Counted from the first letter of the stretch, positions 44,586 to 57,708 are shown. The stretch is 64,000 bases of DNA from Gammaproteobacteria bacterium (GCA_037388465.1 JARRKE010000005.1:5010-69009); one strand, 5' to 3'. The notes: a model not told the origin generated them from the letters alone. Made by a program: numbers and translations.

Positions 44586-44932
44586 CCGGACGGATTCCGA
44601 TAGCGCCGGCTGCACTGCATTGGGTGCGGGACGGCAAGTCACGCACCGCTTTCGGGCATTGCTGCCGCCCCGCCGCCCCCCGAAGCCGCCACGGCCGAGC
44701 CCGCCATCCGCCGCCCGGCGTAACTGGCGCATTCATTGCTTCATATGCGCGGGGTATTTCCAATCCCCTGTTTGTGGGTTACAACTTCACACGTTGCAGC
44801 CTGCTATAACAAACTGCGGACTTCTGAAAACATCAGCCCGCCGCAGATAATGGGGGACGTTGAGGCATGACATCAGGACGATGGTCTGAAGACCGCCCAT
44901 GTGATGAAGCCATACCAACGAGGAGAGCAATC

Positions 44933-46036
44933 ATGATCCGCAAGTCACTGACAACCATCGCCCTCGCGGCCGTGACCGCGTTCGGGGCGAGCTTGCCGGC
45001 TCAGGCCGAAAAACCAACGCTCAGGGTATACAACTGGTCCGACTACATTGCCGAAGATACCGTGCCGAACTTCACCAAGCAGACCGGTGTCCCCGTCACC
45101 TACGACGTGTTCGACAGCAACGAGGTGCTGGAAGGCAAGCTGCTCGCAGGCCATACCGGATATGACGTCGTCGTGCCTTCGGCCTACTTCCTGGAGCGCC
45201 AGATCAAGGCCGGCGTGTTCCAGAAGCTCGACAAGGCCATGATCCCGAATTTCAAGGGCCTGGATCCCAAGCTGATGAAACAGCTCGCCAAGGTGGATCC
45301 CGGCAATCAGTACGGCGTGCCCTATATGTGGGGCACCACCGGCATCGGCTACAACGTGAAGGAGGTCGAGAAGCGCTTGGGCAAGAACGCGCCGACCGAC
45401 AGCTGGAAACTGATCTTCGATCCCAAGTACGTCTCCAAACTCAAGGACTGCGGCGTCAGCATGCTGGACGCCCCGACCGACGTCGTCCCGGCCGCGCTGC
45501 ACTACCTGGGCCTGGACCCCAACAGCACGAATCCGGCGGACTACGAGAAGGCCTTCGCCCTGCTGGAAAAGGTGCGCCCCTACATCCGTTACTTCCATTC
45601 CTCGCAGTACATCAACGACCTGGCCAACGGCAACATCTGCGTGGCCATCGGCTGGTCGGGTGACGTCTTCCAGGCGCGCGACCGCGCCGACGAGGCCAAG
45701 CACGGCGTGGAGATCGCCTACGTGATCCCGAAGGAAGGCGCGCAGGTGTGGTTCGACATGCTCGCGGTGCCGGCCGACGCGCCGCACCCCAAGGAGGCGT
45801 TCCAGTTCATCAACTACCTGCTCTCCCCCAAGGTGGAGGCGGCCAACACCAACTACATCAGCTACGCCAACCCGGTGCCGGGTTCGCTGAAGTATGTTGA
45901 AAAAGACATCAAGGACGATCCGGCCATTTATCCGCCGCCGGCCGTCATGGACAAGCTGTACACCTACCTGACGCCGCAGCCCAAGATCAACCGCATCATG
46001 ACGCGGCTCTGGACCAAGCTCAAAACAGGAACCTGA
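44933..46036 (+). CDS. potF: Putrescine/spermidine periplasmic binding protein
   Basis: Signal peptide MIRKSLTTIALAAVTAFGASLPAQA, PotD/F fold, AGGAGAG Shine-Dalgarno sequence. Confidence 0.85.
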   Translation: MIRKSLTTIALAAVTAFGASLPAQAEKPTLRVYNWSDYIAEDTVPNFTKQTGVPVTYDVFDSNEVLEGKLLAGHTGYDVVVPSAYFLERQIKAGVFQKLDKAMIPNFKGLDPKLMKQLAKVDPGNQYGVPYMWGTTGIGYNVKEVEKRLGKNAPTDSWKLIFDPKYVSKLKDCGVSMLDAPTDVVPAALHYLGLDPNSTNPADYEKAFALLEKVRPYIRYFHSSQYINDLANGNICVAIGWSGDVFQARDRADEAKHGVEIAYVIPKEGAQVWFDMLAVPADAPHPKEAFQFINYLLSPKVEAANTNYISYANPVPGSLKYVEKDIKDDPAIYPPPAVMDKLYTYLTPQPKINRIMTRLWTKLKTGT

Positions 46037-46098
46037 TCCTGCAATCAAACGCCCCATCCGGCAGCGGATGGGGCGTTTTCATCTGCGTGCCCTGAACC

Positions 46099-47232
46099 AT
46101 GCCACAGCAATCAGCAAGTAACACCGTCCCCGCAATGGATGCGGACGCCGCCTACATCCGCCTGCAGGGACTGCGCAAGGAATTCGACGGCACCGTCGCC
46201 GTCCACGACACCGACCTCGACATCCGCAAGGGCGAGATCTTCGCGCTGCTCGGCAGTACGGGCTGCGGCAAGACCACCCTGCTGCGCATGCTGTCGGGTT
46301 TCGAAATACCCACCAGCGGGCAGATCCTGATCGACGGCGAGGACATGACCAACGTCGCGCCGTATCACCGCCCGACCAACATGATGTTCCAGTCCTACGC
46401 CATCTTCCCGCACATGACCGTGGAGCAGAACATCGCCTTCGGCCTGAAGCAGGAAGGACAGCCCAAGGACAAGATCAAGAAAACGATCAAGGAAATGCTG
46501 GAACTGGTGCGCATGACGCCGTACGCCAAGCGTAAACCGCACCAGCTTTCCGGCGGCCAGCGCCAGCGCGTCGCGCTCGCCCGCAGCCTGGCCAAACGCC
46601 CCAAGCTGCTGCTGCTCGACGAACCCATGAGCGCGCTGGACAAGAAACTGCGCAACCAGGTGCAGTTCGAGATCGTCAACATCCTGGAGCAGCTGGGCAT
46701 GACCTGCGTCATCGTCACCCATGACCAGGAAGAGGCCATGACCATGGCGCACCGCATGGCCGTCATGGACCAGGGAGAGATCCTGCAAGTCGGCACGCCC
46801 AGCGAAATCTACGAACATCCGAACTGCCGCTTCACCGCGGAGTTCATCGGCAGCGTCAACCTGTTCGAAGGCAGGCTCGTCGAGGACGAACCGGATCACG
46901 TGGTCATCGATTCGTCGGAGGCCTGCTGCCCGATCCGCGTCGGCCACGGCATCAGCGGCACGCTGGACATGCAGGTGTGGGCCGCCATCCGCCCCGAGAA
47001 GATCACCATCCAGCGCGAAAAAAGTCCGCTCGACCATAACTGCGCGCAGGGCACGGTGGTCGAGATCGGTTACCAGGGCAGCCACTCCATCTATCACGTG
47101 CGTCTGGACAGCGGAAAACGCGTGGTGGTGACCCAGCCCAACCAGAGCCGCAACATCGACCTGCGCCCCACCTGGGACGACCGCGTCTATCTGAGCTGGG
47201 ACGAAGAGGCCCCGGTGGTGCTGACCCGATGA
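46099..47232 (+). CDS. potG: Polyamine ABC transporter ATPase
   Basis: GSTGCGKTT Walker A, LSGGQRQRVALAR, and a TOBE-like C-domain. Confidence 0.9.
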   Translation: MPQQSASNTVPAMDADAAYIRLQGLRKEFDGTVAVHDTDLDIRKGEIFALLGSTGCGKTTLLRMLSGFEIPTSGQILIDGEDMTNVAPYHRPTNMMFQSYAIFPHMTVEQNIAFGLKQEGQPKDKIKKTIKEMLELVRMTPYAKRKPHQLSGGQRQRVALARSLAKRPKLLLLDEPMSALDKKLRNQVQFEIVNILEQLGMTCVIVTHDQEEAMTMAHRMAVMDQGEILQVGTPSEIYEHPNCRFTAEFIGSVNLFEGRLVEDEPDHVVIDSSEACCPIRVGHGISGTLDMQVWAAIRPEKITIQREKSPLDHNCAQGTVVEIGYQGSHSIYHVRLDSGKRVVVTQPNQSRNIDLRPTWDDRVYLSWDEEAPVVLTR

Positions 47233-48134
47233 AACTCCGACGCTTCAAACCGCTGTTCCCGCGCGGGCGCGGCCTGATCATCGGGGTCCCCTATCTCTGG
47301 CTGCTGCTGTTCTTCCTGATCCCGTTCATCATCGTTCTCAAGATCAGCTTCGCCGTCTCGGTCATCGACGTCCCGCCCTATACCGCGCTGCTCCAGTTCA
47401 AGGACGACGCGCTGCGCATCACGCTGGACCTGGGCAACTACCTGTTCCTGCTCAGCGACGATCTGTACGCCCTCGCCTACCTGAGCTCGATTCAGATCGC
47501 CGCCCTTTCCACGCTGCTGTGCCTGCTGATCGGCTACCCAATGGCGTACGCGATCTCGCGCGCCACGCCGACGCTGCGCAGCATCTTTCTGATGCTCATC
47601 ATCATCCCGTACTGGACCTCGTTCCTGATCCGGGTCTACGCCTGGATGGGCATTCTCAGCACCAACGGCCTGCTCAACGACTTCCTGATCCACCTGGGAA
47701 TCGTCAGCCAGCCGCTGCACATCATGTACACCAACTTCGCCGTCTATCTCGGCATGGTCTACGCCTATCTGCCGTTCATGGTGCTGCCCTTGTACGCCAA
47801 CCTGGTGCGCCACGATCCCAGCCTGCTGGAAGCGGCACACGACCTCGGCGCCAAACCCTGGAAGGCGTTCTTCACCATCACGGTGCCGCTTTCCAAGGGC
47901 GGCATCATCGCCGGCTCGCTGCTGGTGTTCATCCCCGCAGTGGGAGAGTTCGTCATCCCCGAGCTGCTGGGCGGACCCAACACCCTGATGATCGGGCGCG
48001 TGGTGTGGAACGAATTCTTCGCCAATCACGACTGGCCCACGGCCGCCGCGGTGGCCATCGTCATGCTGCTCATCCTGCTGGTGCCGATCATCCTGTTCCA
48101 CCGCTATCAGGCGCGTGAGCTGGAGAGATTCTGA
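47229..48134 (+). CDS. potH: Polyamine ABC permease
   Basis: 6 TM helices and the EAA loop. Confidence 0.85.
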   Translation: MKLRRFKPLFPRGRGLIIGVPYLWLLLFFLIPFIIVLKISFAVSVIDVPPYTALLQFKDDALRITLDLGNYLFLLSDDLYALAYLSSIQIAALSTLLCLLIGYPMAYAISRATPTLRSIFLMLIIIPYWTSFLIRVYAWMGILSTNGLLNDFLIHLGIVSQPLHIMYTNFAVYLGMVYAYLPFMVLPLYANLVRHDPSLLEAAHDLGAKPWKAFFTITVPLSKGGIIAGSLLVFIPAVGEFVIPELLGGPNTLMIGRVVWNEFFANHDWPTAAAVAIVMLLILLVPIILFHRYQARELERF

Positions 48135-49039
48135 TGCAGCTGCGCATGCCGAAACCGACCTCGTTCATGCTCGGCCTCGGGATCGTCTTCCTGTACATCC
48201 CGATCGTCAGCCTGATCATCTATTCCTTCAACGCCTCGCGGCTGGTCACCGTCTGGGCCGGCTTCTCGCCCAAGTGGTACGCCGCGCTGTTGCATGACCA
48301 GCAGATCCTCGATGCCGCCTGGATGAGTCTGCGCATCGCCTTCTCCAGCGCCAGCACCGCGGTCGTGCTCGGCACCCTCGCAGCCCTGTCCATGGTTCGC
48401 TACGGACGCTTCCGCGGCCACACCCTGTTCGCCGGCATGATCACCGCGCCGCTGGTCATGCCCGACGTCATCCTCGGTCTGTCGCTGCTGCTGTTGTTCG
48501 TGGCCATGCAGACCGGCCTGGGCTGGCCGGAGAACCGCGGCATGCTCACCATCTGGATCGCGCACGCCACCTTCTGCACCGCCTACGTCACGGTGGTGAT
48601 CGCATCCAGGCTGCGCGACCTGGACCGCTCGCTCGAAGAGGCCGCCCTGGACCTGGGCGCCGCGCCGTGGAAGGTGTTCTTCGTCATCATGCTGCCCGGC
48701 ATTGCCCCCTCGCTGGTCGCCGGCTGGCTGCTGTCCTTCACCCTGTCGCTGGACGACCTGGTGGTCGCGAGCTTCGTCGCCGGCCCCGGCTCCACCACCC
48801 TGCCCATGGTGATCTTCTCGCGCGTGCGACTCGGCGTCAGCCCGACCATCAACGCGCTGGCCACCCTGCTGGTGCTGGCCGTCACCGTCAGCGTGCTGCT
48901 CGCCGCCTGGGCCACCTCGCGCATGGAGCGCAAACGCCGCATCGAGGCCCAGATGGCGTTGACGACCACCGTCGACGAGGACATGGAACAGCAGGAAGAA
49001 GGAGAACCGGAATACGCGCCGCACGGCGTCCGGGAGTGA
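48134..49039 (+). CDS. potI: Polyamine ABC permease
   Basis: 6 TM helices. 1-nt overlap (TGATG) with potH. Confidence 0.85.
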   Translation: MQLRMPKPTSFMLGLGIVFLYIPIVSLIIYSFNASRLVTVWAGFSPKWYAALLHDQQILDAAWMSLRIAFSSASTAVVLGTLAALSMVRYGRFRGHTLFAGMITAPLVMPDVILGLSLLLLFVAMQTGLGWPENRGMLTIWIAHATFCTAYVTVVIASRLRDLDRSLEEAALDLGAAPWKVFFVIMLPGIAPSLVAGWLLSFTLSLDDLVVASFVAGPGSTTLPMVIFSRVRLGVSPTINALATLLVLAVTVSVLLAAWATSRMERKRRIEAQMALTTTVDEDMEQQEEGEPEYAPHGVRE

Positions 49040-49055
49040 TGTATCGCAGTGACCG

Positions 49056-50177
49056 TTACGGCCGCTGCGCGTAACCCGTCATTTCCAGATAGCCCTGCCC
49101 CGTCACGGCCCTGCCCGCATGACGTCCGGTCGCATCGACGGCCCCTTCCCAGTACTTCACCGTCAGATCGAGCTCCTGGTTCGGAACCATCGCCCGCACC
49201 TCGAGCCGCAGATGCTGCGTCGGAATACGGATTTCCCAGGCGACGGGATACGCGGCCCCGTCCGGGCTTTTCCATACATGCTGTGGCTTGAGCGAGAAGT
49301 CCGCGGCTTTCAGATGTACCGTCTCGCCATTCCTGGTGATGAGCGTGCCCTGACTGTAGGGGTCGGGGGCACCGTCCTTTTGCCGCAGCTGGTACAGCAT
49401 CAGGTCGCTGCCGTCGGAAAGGTGCAGCCCGAACCAGTCCCAACCCACCTGATCGGGCGACAAGGCGCTGGTGGACCACTCCCGGTCCAGCCACACCAGT
49501 CCGGTTACCGGGTACGAAGTACCGCCGACCTCGATACGGCCCTGCGCAGCCAGGCGCGGCATGCTGTAGTAGTACGACGCCTGCGCGGGCCCCTTGCGGC
49601 TCAGGCCGCGATCCCCTTCCAGAACGGGCGGCTTGTCGGGCGTGAGGTCCAAGCGCACGGCTGTGTCTCCATCTTTGGCGTCGAGTCGCCAGGGAAACTC
49701 AGGATTCCCGCTGACCTGCCAGTCGCCCAGCCACACCCGGAACGGTTTCGCCCGCGCGCCGGCAAGTCCCTGTGCGCCCCGTGCGAAACGCTGCCAGGCA
49801 TGAAAGCGGCCCGTCTTTACGTCCGTCACGGCGAAGTGCGCCATGTAAATCTGGTTGGTCAGCCAGCGGTCGTTGCCGACGGGTGCCCGGGGCGTCAGCG
49901 CGATACGGAAAAACGTAAGCTCGAAACCGAAGCGCCGGCCCGCCTCGGTATGCAGCACCCCGGTGTAGTACCACCATTCGTTGCGAAACCCGGGATGAGG
50001 ACCGTGGTCGGCCGGAAAATGAAACGCCCGCGGCGTCCCGATCTGCGCGAAGCCCGTGGTGGGCTCGCCACCCAACGCCTTGCCCAGACTCACGCCTTCG
50101 TCCCGGCCGCTGGCCGGCTGCTGATGACAGCCTGCCAACGACAGTCCCAGCAACAGCAGTGCAACAACCCGCATCAT
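49056..50177 (-). CDS. AttH/CrtC-like (hydroxyneurosporene-synthase fold + lipocalin-like) lipoprotein
   Basis: Start [17 protein letters not shown] (lipobox). Contains GFELTFFR and YWEGAVDATG motifs. The start overlaps the ybbP stop (ATGA). Confidence 0.7.
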   Translation of the reverse strand: MMRVVALLLLGLSLAGCHQQPASGRDEGVSLGKALGGEPTTGFAQIGTPRAFHFPADHGPHPGFRNEWWYYTGVLHTEAGRRFGFELTFFRIALTPRAPVGNDRWLTNQIYMAHFAVTDVKTGRFHAWQRFARGAQGLAGARAKPFRVWLGDWQVSGNPEFPWRLDAKDGDTAVRLDLTPDKPPVLEGDRGLSRKGPAQASYYYSMPRLAAQGRIEVGGTSYPVTGLVWLDREWSTSALSPDQVGWDWFGLHLSDGSDLMLYQLRQKDGAPDPYSQGTLITRNGETVHLKAADFSLKPQHVWKSPDGAAYPVAWEIRIPTQHLRLEVRAMVPNQELDLTVKYWEGAVDATGRHAGRAVTGQGYLEMTGYAQRP

Positions 50178-52642
50178 GCCGACCTCAAGGCCCGGGCCGG
50201 CGGGGTGCGGGCCAGGCGCAGCGCGGGATAGAGGCTCGCCAGCAGGGCGCCGCCCAGTGCCAGCAGCAACGTCTGCCCGAACAGTGGCGCCTGGAAGTGC
50301 AGCAGCAGGCTCCAGCCGAAGGCGCGCGGATTGACCAGTTCGACCAGCGCCCAGGCCAGCGCCGCGCCCAGCGGCAGGGCGATCAGCCCGGCGCACAGCC
50401 CGATCAGCGCAGCCTCCCCGATCAGCAGACCGAACACGCCCGCCGGCGTCAGCCCCAGCGCACGCAGCGTGGCATGCACGCGGCTGCGCTCCAGCAGCAG
50501 AGCCATCAGGCCGCTGAACACGCCGGCGAAGGCAACCAGCAGCACCAGCAGACGCAGGGCGCGGGTCACCGCGAAGGTCTGGTCGAAGGTATGCAGGGCA
50601 TTGGCCAGGATGGCGCGGTTGGAGCGCACGTCCAGTGCCAGGCCGTCCCGCGCGGCCAGGGTACGCAAGCGTTCCTGCATGGCCTGCAGGGTCACACCGT
50701 GGCGCAGGTACAACCCCAGTGTCAGGACCCGGTCGTCCCGCCAGTACCTGGCATAGGCGGCGCGCGCCATCAGCACCCGGCCGGGACCCGGGTTGTAGTC
50801 GTAATACACCCCGACGATGGGAAACGCTCGCCAACCCTGTGCGGTCCGCAGCCGGAGGGTATCACCCGGCGCCAGATGCCGCCGCCGCGACAGGGGTTCC
50901 GAGATCAGTACCGCCCCCGCCTGCCAGCGCGACCAGGCATCGGGCTGCCCCGACTTGAGACGCGCCGCCGGATGGGCGCCGGACGGTGTGCCGATGGCCA
51001 GCACGTCGACCGGTCCGCCGGCGGCATCCACCCGGGTGCGGATACCGGTGTGCAGCGCATCGAGTCCGGGCAGCGCACCCACCTGCCGGACGAAGGCGGG
51101 CGGCAACGCCCGCCCGCCGTCCGCCGAGACATATAAATCGCCGTTCAGGGTCTGGCCCAGCCAGTCGGCCACGGTGCTGCGAAAGCTGTTCACCATCAGC
51201 CCGACGCCCAGACCGGCGGCGACGGCGACCGCCAGTGCGGCGGCGGCCACACCCATGCGGTCCAGCCCGCCGCGCGCCTCGGCCAGCGCCAGGCGTCCCG
51301 CCAGACCGCCGACCCGTCCGCGCTGCAGCAGATCGAGCACCCGCCCGACCAGCCAGGGCGTCGCCAATGCCGCACCCAGAATGAACAGAAAAATCCCGGC
51401 GAACACCGGCACCAGTCCTGCCATCAGGGTCAACAGGCCGGCCGCCAGCATGCAGGCCACACCCAGCAGGGCGAACTGCGGGGCGCGGCGCACAGCCTGC
51501 CGCGCCAGACCGGCTTCCTCGCCGGCCCCGCGTGGAGGCCAGCCCGCCGCTTCCCAGGCCGGCGGCAGCGCCGCAAGCACGGCCGCCGCCACGGCCAGCC
51601 CCACGCCGCCCAGCCACAATGCCGGACCGGGATACAGGCGGCGCACGGTCAACCCGAAATACAGGTCGTTGATGGTGCGCGCGATGAGATCGAGCAGCCC
51701 CTGGGCCAGTCCCAGGCCCAGAGCGCTGCCGGCCAGGCCACCGACGATGCCGAGCAGTCCGGCTTCGGCCAGCAGGGCGGCCAGCACCATACGCCGCGAC
51801 ACGCCCACCGCCCGCAGGCGGGTGACCGTGCCCTGGCGCTGCAGCACCGCGAAACGCAGGGTGTTGAAGATCAGGAACCCGCCCACCAGCAACGCCAGCA
51901 GGCTCAGCGCGAACAGGTTGAGACGAAACGCGCCGGTCAGCGCCCGCGCGGCGGCCAGCAGCTCGTTGGGGGTGGATAGGCGCGCCTCGGGCGGCAGCAT
52001 CGCACGCAAGGCGGACAGGCGATCCGCCGGCAGCGCGAACAGGATTGCGCTCAACCGGCCCCGCATGTCGAGCAGCCGCTGGGCGGTACCGATATCGCAC
52101 AGCACCACACCGGACAGGGCCGCGTCCGCCGGCAGCTCGCCGACCAGTCGCAGCCTGTACTGCGTGCCGCGCGCCTGCGCCGCAAAGCGTCTGCCCGGCT
52201 CGATGCCCAGCTGCGCCGCGGTGGCCGGTGTCATCAGCACCGTGTCCGGCTCGGTAAGCAGGGCCCGCAGCTGCCCGCCGCCGGCCGGGCGGCCCGGCCC
52301 GCCCAGCGTAGCCTCGGCCAGCGGGGCCACCCCCACCAGCTTCAGGGTGTGTTCGCCGGCCTGAATCCAGCCTTCCACCCGTGGCGCACTGGGCACCAGG
52401 CCGTGGCGAAACAGGCGCACCCACAGCCGTTGGTCCAGACCGCGCGGGCCGCCGGTGACACGCTGCTTGGCGCCCCGGTCCAGGGCATGCACCGAAAGCT
52501 CGAAGCCGCGCAGCGCGCTTTGCGAGGCCAGCTGCACACCCACGACCACCGCCACGCCGAGCGCGACCCCGAGCAGGCACAGGGCCAGCTGCAGGCGATG
52601 GAACCGCCAGTAGCGCAGCAGCGAACGCAGCACCAGGCTCAT
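50174..52642 (-). CDS. ABC transporter permease with two FtsX domains (YbbP-like, MacB-type)
   Basis: ~822 aa with two 4-TM FtsX modules. The start overlaps the ATPase stop (ATGA). Confidence 0.85.
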
Positions 52643-53334
52643 GCGTCCCGGATGCACCCGTCGACCAGCCGCAGGGTACGCGACACCTGCGCCGCGGCAC
52701 GCTGGCTATGCGTCACCATCAGCAGCGCGCAGCCGGCCTCGGCCGCGGCCTCGTTGAGCAGCTCGAGCACCGCATCGCCGTTGCCACGATCCAGGCTGCC
52801 GGTAGGTTCGTCGGCCAGGATCAGCGCGGGACGATGGGCGATGGCGCGCGCGATGGCCACACGCTGCTGCTCGCCGCCCGACAGCTGCGCGGGATAATCG
52901 TCGCCGCGCTCGACCAGTCCGACCCGGGCCAGCAGGGTCCGGCTGCGTTCCAGCGCCTCGTCGCGCGCCCAGCCGTTCAGGTCCAGCGGCAGACGCACGT
53001 TCTCGAGGACGGTGAGGTGCGGCACGAGGTTGAAGAACTGATAGACCAGACCGACATGTTCGCGGCGCAGCCGGGTGCGGCCGGTTTCATTCAGCGACTG
53101 CAGGGAGCGGCCCAGGATTTCCACCCCGCCGGCATCCGGCGGCTCGATGCCGGCGGCCACGTTGAGCAGCGTGGATTTGCCCGAACCGCTTTCCCCCACC
53201 AGCGCCACCCGCTCTCCCGGCATGAGCTGCAGCGAGGCACCGATCAGCACCGGGTGCTCACGTCTGCCGTCGCGGTAGTGCAGATGGACGTCGGCGAAGC
53301 GCAGCGCCGGGACAGCGGCGTTGTCTGCCGTCAT
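52639..53334 (-). CDS. ABC transporter ATP-binding protein (YbbA/LolD-like)
   Basis: [25 protein letters not shown] and [12 protein letters not shown] motifs. Confidence 0.9.
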
Positions 53335-54428
53335 CAGTCGAACAGCGACAACTGCGGGCGGGCGGATGCAGGGACGCGGAAATCCGCGCGGTTGAGCGGC
53401 GCCAGACCGCGGTCCAGGCCGAGCCGGCGGCAGGCGACTCGGCAGCGTCTGGCGTACAGGTCCGCCATCACGCCCATGCCGCGCATGCGGGCGCCGAACC
53501 GGGCGTCGTAATCCTTGCCGCCGCGCATCTGGCGCACCAGGCTCATGACGTGCTCGGCCTTGAGCGGTTCGTGATGCCGCAGCCACTCCTGGAACAGCGG
53601 CGCCACCTCGTGCGGCAGACGCAGCAGCACGTAACCGCCCGCCCGGGCACCGTGCTCCGCCGCCGCTTCCAGCACGCTTTCCATCTCGGCGTCGTTCAGC
53701 GCCGGAATCAGCGGCGCGAACAACACCCCCACGGGCACGCCGGCCTCGTGCAGACGGCGCATGGCCTCCAGCCGCCGGGCCGGGGTGGCGGCACGCGGTT
53801 CCAGGCGGCGCGCCAGGCCGGGATCGAGGGTGGTGATGGAGAACATGACGTGGATCAGCCCGGCCTGCGCCATCGGCGCGATAATGTCCAGATCGCGCTC
53901 GATCAGGGCGGATTTGGTCACGATCGAGACCGGATGACGGAATTCCCACAGCACTTCCAGCAGCGAGCGGGTCAGGCGCGTGCGCCGCTCCACCGGCTGA
54001 TAGGCGTCGGTGTTGATGCCCAGCGCGATGGGGTCGCAAACGTAACCGGGCTTGGCCAGCTCCTCGCGCAGACGCGCCGCGGCGTCCGGCTTGTAGAACA
54101 GGCGGGTTTCGAAATCCAGCCCGGCCGAGAGCCCCAGGTAGGCATGGCTGGGACGCGCGAAGCAGTAGCTGCAGCCATGTTCGCAGCCCCGATAGGGATT
54201 CACCGACTGACTAAACGGCACGTCCGGGGAATCGTTGCGGGTGATGACTCGGCGCGCGGTATCCACGTCCAGGGTGGTGCGCAGCCGCTCCTCCTCAGGT
54301 TCAGGCACGGTCCAGCCGTCGTCCTCGCGCTGGTGCTGGCGGCTCTCGAAGCGCCCGTCGGGGTTGCTGACCGCCCCGCGCCCCTTGCGTGGCTGTGCCG
54401 GGATTCGGGTATCCGGTTCGGTGTCCAT
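53334..54428 (-). CDS. Radical SAM protein, SplB-like/PA0069 family (N-terminus may extend to 54491)
   Basis: KGRGAVSNPDGRFE N-terminal signature and CEHGCSYCF (CxxxCxxC). The stop overlaps the ATPase start (TGATG). Confidence 0.8.
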   Translation of the reverse strand: MDTEPDTRIPAQPRKGRGAVSNPDGRFESRQHQREDDGWTVPEPEEERLRTTLDVDTARRVITRNDSPDVPFSQSVNPYRGCEHGCSYCFARPSHAYLGLSAGLDFETRLFYKPDAAARLREELAKPGYVCDPIALGINTDAYQPVERRTRLTRSLLEVLWEFRHPVSIVTKSALIERDLDIIAPMAQAGLIHVMFSITTLDPGLARRLEPRAATPARRLEAMRRLHEAGVPVGVLFAPLIPALNDAEMESVLEAAAEHGARAGGYVLLRLPHEVAPLFQEWLRHHEPLKAEHVMSLVRQMRGGKDYDARFGARMRGMGVMADLYARRCRVACRRLGLDRGLAPLNRADFRVPASARPQLSLFD

Positions 54429-54509
54429 CTCGAACCTCAGTATACGCGCCGTGAGCGATAGTGGCGGGACGCATTCAAGCGAAACTGCCACGCACCAGCA
54501 TGCGCGGGA

Positions 54510-56861
54510 TTAAGCCTCGAGGCGGATGCGGTCGATGAGCAGATTGACCAGTTTGTTGCGGGCACGTACGAACTCGCGCCGTTCCAGCCCCCGGCGCGCC
54601 AGCGCCGTCAGGTTCCGGTGCGCCCGTTCCAACGGCTGGCCCGCGAGCCCGACCGCCTCGATGTAGTGCATCGCCGGACAGGGCATCTCGAGCAGGCGTT
54701 CCAGGGCATCCGGGTCACGTATGCTGGCGGTGATCTGCTCGTTGAAGAGCATGTATGAGGCCAGTGTTCCCAGGGCCGTGGCCGGCTGCATCGGCTCCAG
54801 GCTGAGCTGGAACCCGCCGACCCAGCCCGGCACCTCCTGCGGCGGCATGGGCGGCGAAATGGCATGACCCTGCCCGTGCCCTGCGCCCAGCATGGCGGCG
54901 GCCTCGACCAGGCCCTGGTTCTCCAGGCCTTCCACCACCACGACCTTGCCCATGTCCTCGGCCAGCCGCGTCAGGTGGCGGATAAAGACAAGGGTGCGCA
55001 AGGCGTCATCGGGACCGCGGCGCACCAAGGCCTGGTCGATCTTGACCCAGTCGAAGGGAAGCTGGTCCAGACGCAGCAGGCTGCTGTGGCCGGAACCCAG
55101 GTCGTCTTCCGCAAGCTGCACGCCCAGCGCCTTGAAGCCGGCAATCGCGCGGTCGCGCGCCTGCTCGTCCTCGATCTCGCCCGACTCCAGCACCTCCAGC
55201 AACAGCCGGTCCGGGGCCAGGCTGGTGCGTGCCAGCGCATGTTCGACCAATCCGATGTAACGCGAATCCATCAAGCCCTGCGACGGCAGATTAAGGGACA
55301 CCTTGAGCTCCAGCCCCTCCCGGTCCCATTCCAGGAGATGCCGAAGCGCCTGGTTCAAGCCCAGATCGAACAGGCGGCGCATGTCCTCGTTGGTAAAGGT
55401 CGGCAGAAACCGGTCGGGCAGAATCAGCTCGCCCGTTCCGTCGCGCAGCCTCGCCAGCGACTCCATACTCACCGGCCGGCCGGTACGCAGATCGATGACC
55501 GGCTGGTAGTACATGATCAGCCCGCCGTCTTCCAGAAGGCTGCGCCACTGGCGGCGAATCTGGTAAGGCAGCGGCGCGGCTGCCTCCGCTTTCGGATCGA
55601 GACGCAGCAGGGCCAGGCCGAGCACATGGCGCAGATGGCGCAGCATGGCTTTGTGCGCACGCGAGGAAAATCCGCCGGCATAGGACGAATACAGCGTCAG
55701 CACCACATGGGCGACGCCCTCGGGCGGAGCGAGCGGAATGGCGACGTTCGATCGCACGCCGAGCCTGGCGGCGGTGCTCCGCCAGGGCTCCATACGGGGA
55801 TCGCTGGCATAGTTGACCGTACGTTCGATCTGTCCGCTGCGCCAGGCACGCCCGGTCGGTCCCTGCCCCTGGGGATGGGAGGGATCGGTCACGATGGTCC
55901 GGGCCTTGCCCGCACTCACCTCATCGAGGTAGGCCTTGAAGGTGTCCCCGGCGACGAACTCGAACTGGAATTGAGGTCCCTCACCGGGGCGGCCGATGGT
56001 AGCGGCCACCACCTCGTCCAGCCCGGCAAGGGCATCGACCACGCCCTGTGCCAGGTCGGCGAAGCTTTGTGCCCGCCAGGCCAAGGCGTCGAGACGCCGC
56101 AGCACGTCCTGGCGGCCTTCTTCGATCGTTTCGAAACCGGACAGCTGAGCCTGCAGATCCATCCCCACCCGATGGCTCAGCACCGCATGGGCCAGACCGG
56201 CGTGCACCAGTCTCGACTGCACCATGTTGGTCCACTGACTGTAGGCGTCGATCAGCCAGGTCGGCTCGATACCGGCCATGGCGTGAACCCGCCCGACGCG
56301 GGCGGCGGTCGCATGATGGGTTGCCGCATCGAGATGGGGGTCGATCAATAAGCGGAAATGATTGGCCAGTGCCTGCTGCAAACCTTCCCGATTGTCGGGG
56401 GTCAGGCTCGCGAGCACCTGACCGGCGCCTGAACTGCCGGCAAGCTGCTCGTCGAAAAACCGTTCGACGAAACTGCTGACCAGGGATTCGAGCGACGCAT
56501 GCAAGGGCTCCAGCAACCGGCATGCATCAGGGCCGTAACCGGGCTGCCCGTCTGTGTCGCCGAGCAGCTGTTCCGAACCGTCGGTGCCGGGATCGAAAGG
56601 ACGCCGCGCGTCGAACATGCCCCACCAGCGATCGCGCAGGCCCTTGGACGACTTGACCCGGTACAGTGCCTGGTCGGCCGCGCGCAGCAGGATGCCCGAC
56701 GCCTGCTCGGTGCAATCAATGCACAGCGGATAGATCACCACCCCGAGGCTCGCGCCGACCTGCACCTCGCCGACCTCATCCAGGGCGATCGGAACGGTGA
56801 TTGATTGACGAATGCGTTCCAGCGTCATCTCGAAGTCGTCGAGATCCTCGATATCCTCCAT
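54510..56861 (-). CDS. 3' fragment of an interrupted c-di-GMP gene: tail of GGDEF (GDEFVILMEDIEDLDDF...ADQALYRVK), sensor-globin-like domain, GAF-like domain, EAL domain and C-terminal extension
   Basis: Globin-sensor motif RVGRVHAMAGIEPTWLIDAY. EAL motifs YYQPVIDLRTG, DDLGSGHSSL and KIDQALV. Confidence 0.7.
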   Translation of the reverse strand: MEDIEDLDDFEMTLERIRQSITVPIALDEVGEVQVGASLGVVIYPLCIDCTEQASGILLRAADQALYRVKSSKGLRDRWWGMFDARRPFDPGTDGSEQLLGDTDGQPGYGPDACRLLEPLHASLESLVSSFVERFFDEQLAGSSGAGQVLASLTPDNREGLQQALANHFRLLIDPHLDAATHHATAARVGRVHAMAGIEPTWLIDAYSQWTNMVQSRLVHAGLAHAVLSHRVGMDLQAQLSGFETIEEGRQDVLRRLDALAWRAQSFADLAQGVVDALAGLDEVVAATIGRPGEGPQFQFEFVAGDTFKAYLDEVSAGKARTIVTDPSHPQGQGPTGRAWRSGQIERTVNYASDPRMEPWRSTAARLGVRSNVAIPLAPPEGVAHVVLTLYSSYAGGFSSRAHKAMLRHLRHVLGLALLRLDPKAEAAAPLPYQIRRQWRSLLEDGGLIMYYQPVIDLRTGRPVSMESLARLRDGTGELILPDRFLPTFTNEDMRRLFDLGLNQALRHLLEWDREGLELKVSLNLPSQGLMDSRYIGLVEHALARTSLAPDRLLLEVLESGEIEDEQARDRAIAGFKALGVQLAEDDLGSGHSSLLRLDQLPFDWVKIDQALVRRGPDDALRTLVFIRHLTRLAEDMGKVVVVEGLENQGLVEAAAMLGAGHGQGHAISPPMPPQEVPGWVGGFQLSLEPMQPATALGTLASYMLFNEQITASIRDPDALERLLEMPCPAMHYIEAVGLAGQPLERAHRNLTALARRGLERREFVRARNKLVNLLIDRIRLEA

Positions 56862-56874
56862 CAGGATGACGAAC

Positions 56875-57708
56875 TCATCCCCTTTCCCTCACGGCGGCCT
56901 TGAGTCGCTGGGCAACCGCACTGAGCACCTGATCGCCGACGGCGTGTCCGAAGCGATCATTGACCGGCTTGAAATCATCCAGGTCCAGCAGACCCACCGC
57001 GAGCAAACGCTCGTTACGATTGGCGCGTGCCAGCGCTTCCTCGATGTGCTGATCCAACGCCGTGCGATTGGGCAACCCGGTCAGGGGATCGCGCAGCGCC
57101 TGCCTGGCCAGATGGCGGCGCTCCGCCGCCACGGCGGCCTCGCGCGACAGGGCGGTGGCCAGCAGATTGGCGAATTCCTCCAGCTGGGCCTGGGTATGCT
57201 GCCGGCCGAACATTCCCGGAACACGGCTGTAGAGGGAGAGGAGCTGGGTCCGGTCGCCGACCCGCAGCGGCAACGCCGCACTGGAACGCCAGCCGAACTG
57301 CTCGATCCAAGGCGACCAGGGACCGGGCGCCGACCCGTCCTTCCAGTCGGCGACGTACTGCGGCGTGCCGGTCTGCACGGCGCGTCCACCAGGGCCGCGG
57401 GCCCAGGGACTGTCGTCCCAGCGCAGCGGCACATTGGCCACGTAGGCGGCCATATCCTCATCGCTGGCGTGTTCGAACAGGATGCTGCCGTCCGTCCGGG
57501 CGGCGCCCAGCCAGAATCCCTCCACCCCCCAGTCCTGCAGCAGCGGCTCCAGGCCCACCAGCAAATCGCGCGTCGACAGCGCCTGGGCGAGCAGGAAACT
57601 GAGGCGATAAAAGAAGTCGCGTTTTTCCGGACTATCGCTATCTGAAGATTCGGTAATCAAGACAGCACCCTCTGAACGGCCCCATACTACAGGCCGACCA
57701 TGACGCAA
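56875..57708 (-). CDS. 5' fragment of the same gene: GAF-like domain + first half of GGDEF (DPLTGLPNR...DDFKPVNDRFGHAVGD), ending RERG*
   Basis: The stop TGA at 56877..56875 falls exactly where GGDEF should follow. The motif continues in another frame. Confidence 0.7.
   Translation of the reverse strand: MRHGRPVVWGRSEGAVLITESSDSDSPEKRDFFYRLSFLLAQALSTRDLLVGLEPLLQDWGVEGFWLGAARTDGSILFEHASDEDMAAYVANVPLRWDDSPWARGPGGRAVQTGTPQYVADWKDGSAPGPWSPWIEQFGWRSSAALPLRVGDRTQLLSLYSRVPGMFGRQHTQAQLEEFANLLATALSREAAVAAERRHLARQALRDPLTGLPNRTALDQHIEEALARANRNERLLAVGLLDLDDFKPVNDRFGHAVGDQVLSAVAQRLKAAVRERG

Follow-up and report, generated by a model that had tools for sequence, protein, structure and literature searches.

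Organisation of the locus

Four genes lie head to tail on the minus strand of the window (the whole 64,000-nucleotide stretch of gammaproteobacterial DNA analysed): a PA0069-family radical SAM (rSAM) gene, an ABC ATPase gene, a gene for a fused double-FtsX permease and a gene for an AttH-type lipoprotein. Direct reading of that strand bore out the preliminary description of an overlapping string at all three junctions, the start/stop overlaps being 1, 4 and 4 nt, respectively. At the rSAM/ATPase junction (TGATG, 53332..53336), which is also the species-specific breakpoint considered below, the A of the rSAM stop TGA (53336..53334) is common to the ATPase ATG (53334..53332). The ATPase/permease junction (ATGA, 52639..52642) brings together the ATPase stop at 52641..52639 and the permease ATG at 52642..52640, and the permease/AttH junction (ATGA, 50174..50177) the permease stop at 50176..50174 and the AttH ATG at 50177..50175, all on the minus strand. 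The gene identities first read at the locus were likewise upheld by profile matches to NF033668, ABC_tran, FtsX (twice) plus MacB_PCD, and PF07143 plus PF17186.

Such overlaps are commonplace rather than exceptional. A survey of AttH loci recorded a 4-nt ATPase-permease overlap in 27 of 37 loci, and a permease-AttH overlap or gap of no more than 20 nt in 64 of 69. The pot-like operon adjoining the four genes likewise has a 4-nt (47229/47232) and a 1-nt (48134) overlap. The earlier claim that the overlaps imply obligate co-translation was overstated, while co-transcription of the four genes in this species appears likely. Ahead of the four genes, the sole non-coding stretch able to hold a promoter is an 81-nt spacer (54429..54509, minus strand) that separates the start of the rSAM gene from the GGDEF/EAL gene lying upstream, and in which neither a sigma-70-like promoter site nor a canonical LexA box was found.

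The radical SAM gene

The rSAM gene (53334..54428, minus strand; 364 aa; NF033668, PF04055) is of the COG1533 'splB' type, and matched the NCBIfam PA0069-family model NF033668 with 508.4 bits against a cutoff of 360, residues 16-364 aligning with positions 1-348 of the 348 in the model. The CxxxCxxC motif for the [4Fe-4S] cluster was read from the sequence as CEHGCSYC (54162..54185, minus strand), and its cysteines are invariant in the rSAM family alignment (A1). PF04055 was the sole Pfam domain detected, no B12-binding domain being found, and the protein is without a signal peptide. A GTG at 54491 opens the longest reading frame and had been taken as the upper limit of the four-gene span (49056-54491). 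The rSAM start has been moved to the ATG at 54428, which is preceded by GAGG 7-10 nt upstream and is the likely start codon; it agrees with the deposited protein P0001, to which the 364-aa product is 100% identical, and with the genes called on two further contigs from this species.

Membership of the Pfam spore-photoproduct-lyase (SPL) family was considered and rejected, the match to PF20903 yielding 12.5 bits (E 0.067, residues 188-242 only) against a gathering threshold of 27; a pairwise comparison with one SPL-family protein gave E 1e-5 over 115 residues. The AF2 model of the rSAM protein was poor (mean pLDDT 59.5; residues 1-110 below 50), and Foldseek returned generic rSAM matches only, at E 1e-3 or weaker.

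The ATPase, permease and AttH lipoprotein

The second gene codes for a MacB/LolD/YbbA-type ABC ATPase (52639..53334, minus strand; 231 aa; PF00005 ABC_tran) that shares 47% identity with E. coli YbbA, and whose best NCBIfam matches, YbbA and LolD, both fell below their cutoffs. The third codes for a fused permease (50174..52642, minus strand; 822 aa) with two Pfam FtsX domains, MacB_PCD and two periplasmic domains, the hydropathy profile of which follows that of E. coli YbbP. Its AF2 model (pLDDT 81) has a predicted YbbP-like fold: the best Foldseek match in the PDB was YbbP (9GE6_A; E 8e-23; TM 0.64/0.66 over ~800 residues), and the next-best family gave a TM of 0.35. Structural alignment with YbbP returned 16% identity, and at the sequence level BLASTP gave E 0.001 over one FtsX segment and hhalign a probability of 15.6%. 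The names YbbA and YbbP given to these proteins in the preliminary description are thus apt for architecture and fold, and not for orthology, the ATPase scoring 218.7 bits against a YbbA cutoff of 336 and the permease showing so low an identity.

The fourth gene codes for an AttH-type lipoprotein with two lipocalin domains (49056..50177, minus strand; 373 aa; PF07143, 5e-63; PF17186, 4e-47), which aligned over its full length with NE1406, the 'putative AttH' of PDB entry 2ICH (E 3e-60). A lipobox, L-A-G-C, occupies residues 14-17 (50127..50138, minus strand); among 20 homologues, nine have a lipobox and the rest an N-terminal hydrophobic anchor. The motif W-L-D-R-E-W...G-W-D-W (49434..49493, minus strand), a candidate acid/cation-pi site containing D231, W246 and W248, recurred in 19 of the 20. 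Members of the AttH family are isoprenoid hydratases (PMC6013536, PMC12402844, 10.1101/2025.10.20.683597), and in RgCrtC the catalytic Asp and flanking Trp residues are D268, W283 and W285, accompanied by H239, W241 and Y266 (PMC12402844). The spacings of D231, W246 and W248 (15 and 17 residues) equal those of the RgCrtC triplet when residue numbers, as opposed to an alignment, are compared. The window protein would appear to carry YYY where H239/W241 are expected and W where Y266 is expected (PMC4717167). The immediate neighbours of the AttH gene are the ABC genes, the pot-like importer and the GGDEF/EAL gene; no crt genes adjoin it, nor were any present in the related loci for which gene calls were listed.

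Regulation of the radical SAM family

The COG1533 'splB' family is known as an SOS/LexA-regulated, putative DNA-repair gene, with LexA regulation recorded in five clades and supported by EMSA (PMC4951493). PA0069 is cited as one of 15 SOS genes of P. aeruginosa (in 10.1101/2022.03.14.484287), and a LexA ChIP peak lies at Rv2578c (PMC3381160), such that regulation of the family by LexA spans Proteobacteria, Actinobacteria and Verrucomicrobia (PMC4951493, PMC3381160). Our own scan detected class-appropriate LexA boxes upstream in 47 of 91 rSAM family loci, including GTTC-N7-GTTC in 35 (1.6 expected) and CTGT-N8-ACAG in 11 (0.4 expected). Damaged DNA is the presumed target of the family, whose regulation and putative repair function render lipid chemistry the less favoured role for the rSAM enzyme. 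The window protein resembles the 'splB', PA0069 and Rv2578c proteins in its 508-bit match to NF033668, far over the cutoff; it and its closest relatives differ from them in having no recognisable LexA box, no CTGT-N8-ACAG-like site being present in the 200 nt that precede the rSAM gene either in this window or at the Acidihalobacter-clade loci.

Conservation of the gene order

The preliminary description proposed the rSAM enzyme as part of a unit making a modified lipid for the exporter, a claim open to examination by surveying gene neighbourhoods. Eighty PA0069-family loci from alpha-, beta- and gammaproteobacteria (54-66% identity) were compared, 73 of them with 1 kb or more of downstream sequence and 68 with 3.5 kb or more: none had a permease or AttH gene within 10 kb of the rSAM gene, and no conserved partner gene of any kind emerged across the 80. 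Viewed from the other side, no rSAM gene preceded any of the 26 ATPase-permease-AttH triads whose sequence reached 1.2 kb or more upstream of the ATPase. By way of contrast, the permease lay directly upstream of AttH in 66 of 71 AttH loci, and the full triad was present in 32 of 35; stand-alone triads with their own upstream spacers occur at L174, L175 and pAtC58. As judged from these comparisons of gene order, the conserved unit is the ATPase-permease-AttH triad, of which the rSAM gene is no part. That AttH-type proteins accompany MacB-type ABC genes, as first noted at this locus, is thereby corroborated, as it is by the published att locus table (PMC4051167) and the NE1406 paper (PMC2954199).

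The closest relatives (Acidihalobacter clade, 68-70% identity) have the rSAM gene as a separate unit. In all five of these loci (L081, L082, L163, L164 and L169) the rSAM gene is followed by a convergent FUSC gene, and farther downstream in L081, L082, L163 and L169 by a GT4 gene and then yjbQ-ABC-FtsX2-AttH, with the qualification that the AttH gene of L081 lies beyond the fetched end; the sequence of L164 ends before that region. The rSAM gene and the triad are 4-6 kb apart on the same strand in this sister clade, with the convergent FUSC and GT4 (glycosyltransferase) genes and yjbQ between them, and it is the yjbQ stop, not the rSAM stop, that overlaps the ATPase start (GGTGACTGA). At L170 and L171 the triad was absent within 8 kb. 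No FUSC, GT4 or yjbQ gene is present in the window.

Abutment of the rSAM and ATPase genes was encountered in this species only, where it is found in three assemblies, the same junction recurring in a Logan contig (L167, 100% identical) and a JGI contig (L166, 99.3% identical). Relative to the sister clade the break lies at the start codon of the ATPase gene, although in fine detail the junction is ambiguous. The adjacency is thus lineage-specific, the very outcome that the preliminary description had named as contrary to its proposal, and with the pairing seen in 0 of 80 rSAM loci and 0 of 26 triads, and rSAM gene and triad separated in five out of five closest-relative loci, membership of the rSAM enzyme in such a unit was not sustained.

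Comparison with characterised systems

The triad shares its order of ABC ATPase, FtsX-type permease and AttH with the AttEFGH-type modules of the Agrobacterium pAtC58 att locus and Nitrosomonas NE1404-NE1406, and the association of AttH with ABC/LolD-like genes has been pointed out before (PMC2954199). The window AttH is homologous to NE1406 (2ICH), with both PF07143 and PF17186 present, and 38% identical to a pAtC58 copy, whose gene itself comes after that of a fused permease of 802 aa, the junctions there overlapping as well. The original att locus has two separate permease genes, attF and attG (PMC4051167), whereas the window permease is fused, and only at the window locus does an rSAM gene abut a module of this type.

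E. coli YbbAP-TesA (9GE6/9GE7), which removes hydrophobic compounds from the inner membrane and so supplies an enzyme in the periplasm (PMC12646458), offers a second comparison. Both permeases are single-chain double-FtsX proteins with two periplasmic domains and a like hydropathy layout, and each system would have a genetically linked extracytoplasmic lipid-active partner, AttH being the candidate for that role in the window. The partner in E. coli is, however, a divergently encoded SGNH esterase, whereas that in the window is an AttH/CrtC-fold protein coded for downstream in the operon, and no SGNH (TesA-like) gene adjoins the window triad. An SGNH hydrolase gene does adjoin the pAtC58 triad.

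A third comparison is with archaea, in which the genes for Ted, a B12-rSAM desaturase, and Hgs, an AttH-like hydratase, overlap (10.1101/2025.10.20.683597). Here too an rSAM gene and an AttH-family gene occur in one tight string; however, the window rSAM is of another class, having no B12-binding domain, two ABC genes separate it from AttH, and the window AttH is exported. Nor is the adjacency of rSAM gene and triad conserved, as the survey counts indicate.

Interpretation

The data are best accounted for, with a good measure of confidence, by the joining in this one species of two unrelated units: a solitary PA0069/COG1533 rSAM gene, of a family SOS (LexA)-regulated in many phyla, and a widespread envelope module consisting of an ABC ATPase, a fused double-FtsX permease and an extracytoplasmic AttH. 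The adjacency most likely arose by local deletion, in that loss of the FUSC-GT4-yjbQ interval (~4 kb) would have set the rSAM stop onto the ATPase start; parsimony with outgroups suggests deletion here rather than insertion in the sister clade. On that view the triad is now most likely transcribed from whichever promoter serves the rSAM gene. No biochemical link between the rSAM enzyme and the triad is needed to explain the adjacency. By analogy with YbbAP-TesA, the ATPase would drive a YbbP-like type VII (mechanotransmission) permease that raises a hydrophobic, possibly isoprenoid, molecule from the inner membrane and hands it to the membrane-tethered periplasmic AttH, which may bind it or hydrate a double bond; on that analogy the triad probably extracts membrane lipids, its periplasmic partner being a lipid-binding protein or a hydratase.

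It is conceivable, if rather unlikely, that the fusion was itself selected, with no shared chemistry, as a means of placing the envelope module under the stress-responsive rSAM promoter or that of the GGDEF/EAL gene. The triad would indeed have lost the yjbQ-proximal promoter region of its relatives, and no spacer of its own precedes it; the arrangement has been retained in a strain differing at 0.7% of positions; and in the relatives, too, the ATPase start is coupled in translation to a preceding reading frame, yjbQ. Against such operon capture, neither a LexA box nor a sigma-70-like promoter is recognisable upstream, and the restriction of the arrangement to one species means that a deletion fixed neutrally would account for it just as well.

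Far less probable is the proposal of one functional unit, in which a lipid or isoprenoid modified by the rSAM enzyme would pass to the ABC/AttH pair for export or binding. The close packing of the four genes by start/stop overlaps, the archaeal precedent of an rSAM enzyme and an AttH-like hydratase acting on lipids, and the proximity of rSAM gene and triad, within 6 kb, in the sister clade all speak for it; but the adjacency was missing from every rSAM locus and every triad surveyed, convergent genes split the two in the sister clade and so indicate separate transcripts, the enzyme belongs to the SOS-regulated COG1533 family rather than to the B12-rSAM class, and it lacks a signal peptide, AttH being located outside the cytoplasm.

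A chimeric join creating the rSAM/ATPase junction can be practically dismissed. In its favour, the sequence comes from a MAG ('MAG: Gammaproteobacteria bacterium'), and the window differs by a 23-nt indel from another contig of this species; but the junction is identical in L167 and L166, assembled from other samples, and GC content shows no discontinuity across it.

Two unrelated units brought together, most likely by deletion, remain the preferred reading. The 4-6 kb proximity of rSAM gene and triad throughout the sister clade could nevertheless reflect weak linkage rather than plain synteny. There is a slim chance that this proximity and the fusion seen here are non-accidental, in which case a COG1533 rSAM enzyme would have been recruited in this gammaproteobacterial lineage to work on an isoprenoid or lipid of the membrane, passed on by the YbbAP-like transporter to a periplasmic AttH hydratase; such a recruitment, if true, would give bacteria an equivalent of the archaeal Ted-Hgs pair.

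Identity and arrangement of the four genes

Direct reading of window positions 48800..54800 resolved four successive minus-strand genes: a PA0069-family radical SAM gene (rSAM; start ATG 54428 (-), GAGG upstream, 364 aa) followed by three genes for an ABC ATPase (53334..52639 (-)), a fused double-FtsX permease (52642..50174 (-)) and an AttH-type lipoprotein (50177..49056 (-)), here termed the triad. The junctions recorded in the preliminary description, TGATG (1-nt overlap), ATGA (4 nt) and ATGA (4 nt), agreed exactly with this reading, as did its coordinates with the exception of an rSAM start at 54491, a GTG that opens the longest ORF. The preferred ATG 54428 yields the 364-aa protein called both in the public annotation and in two other same-species contigs.

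The initial gene annotation was also found to be largely right. The rSAM scored 508 bits (cutoff 360) against NCBIfam NF033668, 'PA0069 family radical SAM', with Rv2578c as the second-best family and PF04055 as the only Pfam match. The ATPase, an NBD of the generic MacB/LolD/YbbA type, shares 47% identity with E. coli YbbA and stays under every NCBIfam equivalog cutoff. The permease contains two FtsX domains plus a MacB periplasmic core domain (Pfam). The product of the last gene carries PF07143 (CrtC/AttH) and PF17186 together with a LAGC lipobox, and proved homologous over its full length (E 3e-60) to PDB 2ICH, the 'putative AttH' NE1406 of Nitrosomonas europaea. The rSAM and the triad each belong to a known kind.

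A pot-like polyamine ABC importer operon (44867..49039 (+)) that encodes a binding protein, an ATPase and two permeases faces the AttH gene convergently, 16 nt from its stop; the Agrobacterium att locus likewise has putrescine/mannopine-type ABC genes (attA1A2BC) beside attEFGH (PMC4051167). Upstream of the rSAM lies a gene with a GAF-GGDEF-protoglobin-GAF-EAL layout, in which the window is 23 nt shorter inside the GGDEF motif (..ARLGGDEF..) than a 99.3%-identical JGI contig of the same species (window 56861..56890, deletion point 56881/56882; JGI contig L166, 1139..1161). The 1057-aa gene thereby falls apart into two out-of-frame ORFs (56875..57708 and 54510..56861), whether by genuine inactivation in this strain or by an error in the assembly.

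Start/stop overlaps were not exceptional either for this genome or for the triad module: the adjacent pot-like operon contains one 4-nt and one 1-nt overlap, and, by a nearest-start rule biased toward short gaps, the ATPase-permease junction was a 4-nt overlap in 27/37 related loci and the permease-AttH junction an overlap or a gap within 20 nt in 64/69. Such an overlap is by itself no proof of shared function. Scans of 48500..55200 returned no sigma-70-like promoter and no terminator-like sites above shuffled sequence, both being uninformative in a genome of ~68% GC, and an Rfam scan of the window gave no matches.

Genomic neighbourhoods of the rSAM and the triad

An alignment of 16 PA0069-family proteins was used to fetch 80 rSAM loci from a species-representative genome collection (alpha-, beta- and gammaproteobacteria, 54-66% identity, up to 10 kb per side), downstream sequence reaching 1 kb or more past the rSAM in 73 of them and 3.5 kb or more in 68. 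Searches by tblastn with the four window proteins detected the rSAM in 80/80 of these loci and a permease or AttH in 0/80, up to 10 kb on each side; ATPase matches were confined to scattered, unrelated ABC genes, and clustering of all ORFs within 4 kb revealed no universal rSAM neighbour. The reverse survey, in which 20 aligned AttH proteins served to fetch 80 metagenome AttH loci, placed the permease directly upstream of AttH in 66 of the 71 loci with room for it, and recovered the complete ATPase-permease-AttH triad in 32 of the 35 with at least 3.4 kb upstream. Among the 26 triads for which sequence ahead of the ATPase reached 1.2 kb or more, none had an rSAM homologue anywhere in the locus, and no conserved fourth gene was detected around the triad.

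In alphaproteobacteria the rSAM lies in conserved synteny with repair and replication genes (loci L010, L026, L032, L066, L067, L070 and others); the families within 4 kb, each present in 9-19 loci and identified solely by reading translated sequences, were MoaB-like, RNase HII, CcrM-like methyltransferase, MutY-like and uracil-DNA-glycosylase-like. At one stand-alone AttH triad (L174), a gene of the Pfam SPL family (PF20903; 13041..14168 (-)) lies 3 kb downstream on the opposite strand, with genes for a peptidase and a HAD hydrolase in between; its product shows only weak similarity to the rSAM of the window (E 1e-5 across 115 residues), and its position is probably coincidental.

Origin of the rSAM-ATPase abutment

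The five closest rSAM loci (68-70% identical), from Acidihalobacter yilgarnensis and four metagenome contigs, were uniform in that the rSAM stood in 5/5 between an MBL-fold gene (divergent) and a FUSC gene (convergent). Beyond FUSC came a GT4 gene, followed 4-6 kb from the rSAM and on its strand by yjbQ-ABC-FtsX2-AttH, an order seen in L081, L082, L163 and L169 (L164 being too short, and L081 ending before AttH). The MBL-fold (Lactamase_B) gene adjoins the rSAM at L081 7201..7908 and L082 7260..7955, and also in L163, L164 and L169; in another gammaproteobacterial MAG (L171, 9503..10201) it is convergent with the rSAM, as opposed to divergent in the Acidihalobacter clade. No triad occurred within 8 kb of the rSAM in the next-closest relatives (L170, L171), and triads 56-59% identical to that of the window stand alone behind their own spacers (L174, L175), as does the Agrobacterium pAtC58 copy. 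Neither FUSC nor GT4 nor yjbQ was found in the window.

A yjbQ gene (PF01894) precedes the triad at L081 14648..15067, L082 12982..13401, L163 12650..13069, L169 12751..13170 and, outside the Acidihalobacter clade, L084 2106..2504, these being the only loci where yjbQ was found around the triad. In all of them yjbQ and the ATPase gene share 8 nt, the stop of the former lying over the GTG start of the latter (GGTGACTGA), which couples the ATPase start to the ORF ahead of it, whichever that is. At the same junction in the window, the rSAM stop replaces the yjbQ stop; ATPase homology starts within about two codons of the ATPase start codon. The rSAM end, ...LFD* with GACTGA, resembles the yjbQ end in relatives and is possibly a deletion scar, but MAFFT aligned the ATPase N-terminus differently, two codons further in. 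Parsimony makes the abutment a probable derived loss of roughly 4 kb at the level of this species, and the packing of rSAM and triad is most likely a local, species-specific accident of rearrangement.

Adaptive co-regulation of the rSAM and the triad without shared chemistry is a possible alternative to such an accident. Much less room is left for the new functional unit proposed in the preliminary description, to which only a small probability is now assigned: archaea have a lipid-active pair of an rSAM and an AttH protein, and the rSAM and triad are neighbours across the Acidihalobacter clade, but the archaeal rSAM is of a different class, convergent genes separate rSAM from triad in that clade, and adjacency was absent everywhere else surveyed. 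The reading is not supported: in the loci surveyed the adjacency is lineage-specific, the outcome that the preliminary description had itself named as refuting, with the abutment proper limited to this species. An assembly artefact is excluded because the rSAM-ATPase junction, at which the GC profile shows no discontinuity, is real and present in three assemblies, having been found again in a Logan contig (100% identical) and in the JGI contig (differing at 20 positions plus one indel).

The rSAM family and the SOS response

Several members of this wider family have been linked to the SOS response. PA0069 is one of 15 P. aeruginosa SOS genes according to a statement cited in 10.1101/2022.03.14.484287; for Rv2578c, a LexA peak by ChIP and an induction that depends on RecA are on record (PMC3381160); SplB-like rSAM genes occur in SOS neighbourhoods (PMC3765255); and COG1533 'splB', LexA-regulated in Actinobacteria, Verrucomicrobia and three proteobacterial classes (Alpha-, Beta- and Gammaproteobacteria) and backed by EMSA, has been named a probable core SOS component (PMC4951493). 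When the region from -300 to +60 of the rSAM start was scanned in 91 family members (the 80 survey loci and others), the alphaproteobacterial box GTTC-N7-GTTC was present in 35/91 loci (1.6 expected from locus background), CTGT-N8-ACAG in 11/91 (0.4 expected) and a Xanthomonad-type LexA box in 1/91, chance expectation being <2 of 91 loci for each pattern. No LexA box was detected upstream of the rSAM in the window or in its Acidihalobacter-clade relatives.

These predicted boxes, each appropriate to its class, confirm that PA0069-family rSAM genes of alpha-, beta- and gammaproteobacteria form part of the SOS core. At family level this points to a function directed at DNA damage, SOS control being at most putative for the window copy, which lacks the box. 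The scan provides independent support for SOS membership and exposes a box-less clade that includes this organism.

As judged by its score against Pfam SPL (12.5 bits, cutoff 27), the rSAM and spore photoproduct lyase are only distantly related. A shallow alignment of 16 sequences (61-69% identity) gave an AF2 model of low quality (pLDDT 59.5), which returned only generic rSAM matches in Foldseek; a PDB sequence search gave only spurious PPR-repeat matches.

The triad as a YbbAP-like system

The AF2 model of the permease (pLDDT 81, pTM 0.75, 30-sequence alignment) matched E. coli YbbP best (9GE6_A; E 8e-23, TM 0.64/0.66, whole chain), the next family being BceB (7e-13, TM 0.35), and the hydropathy layouts of permease and YbbP coincide. 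A PDB sequence search missed YbbP, which the fold search alone recovered; since sequence similarity is only marginal, the permease is classed as YbbP-like in fold and not as an orthologue. YbbAP-TesA, shown in 2025 to belong to the type VII ABC systems, pulls hydrophobic compounds out of the inner membrane and supplies them to a lipid hydrolase in the periplasm (PMC12646458). A convergent SGNH/GDSL hydrolase gene lies 24 nt past the AttH of the Agrobacterium pAtC58 triad (L173, 8035..8682), an arrangement that recalls TesA beside ybbAP in E. coli.

That AttH travels with ABC genes, as the preliminary description stated, has been known since the att locus and NE1406 papers (PMC4051167, PMC2954199). 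AttH-family proteins of known activity, such as CrtC, kievitone hydratase and archaeal hydroxy-GDGT synthase, hydrate isoprenoid double bonds. The window AttH contains the motif WLDREW...GWDW, common to 19/20 homologues, in which an Asp and two Trp show the 15- and 17-residue spacing of CrtC D268, W283 and W285 (PMC12402844); these putative CrtC-like catalytic residues, matched by spacing alone, offer a lead. Lipoproteins make up about half of the AttH homologues, and the remainder have an N-terminal hydrophobic anchor.

By analogy with YbbAP-TesA, the triad may extract membrane lipids for a periplasmic partner that hydrates or binds them: the ATP-driven YbbP-like permease would lift a hydrophobic, perhaps isoprenoid, molecule out of the inner membrane and hand it to the membrane-tethered AttH, which would bind or hydrate it. 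The triad is widespread in Proteobacteria, Myxococcota, Acidobacteriota and others, and strongly conserved as a unit. For this so far uncharacterised module the 2025 YbbAP-TesA structures and the AttH-family hydratases now supply a concrete hypothesis. The rSAM-triad adjacency itself carries little weight; what stays of value is the AttH triad, read as a YbbAP-like system, together with the survey of SOS boxes in the rSAM family.
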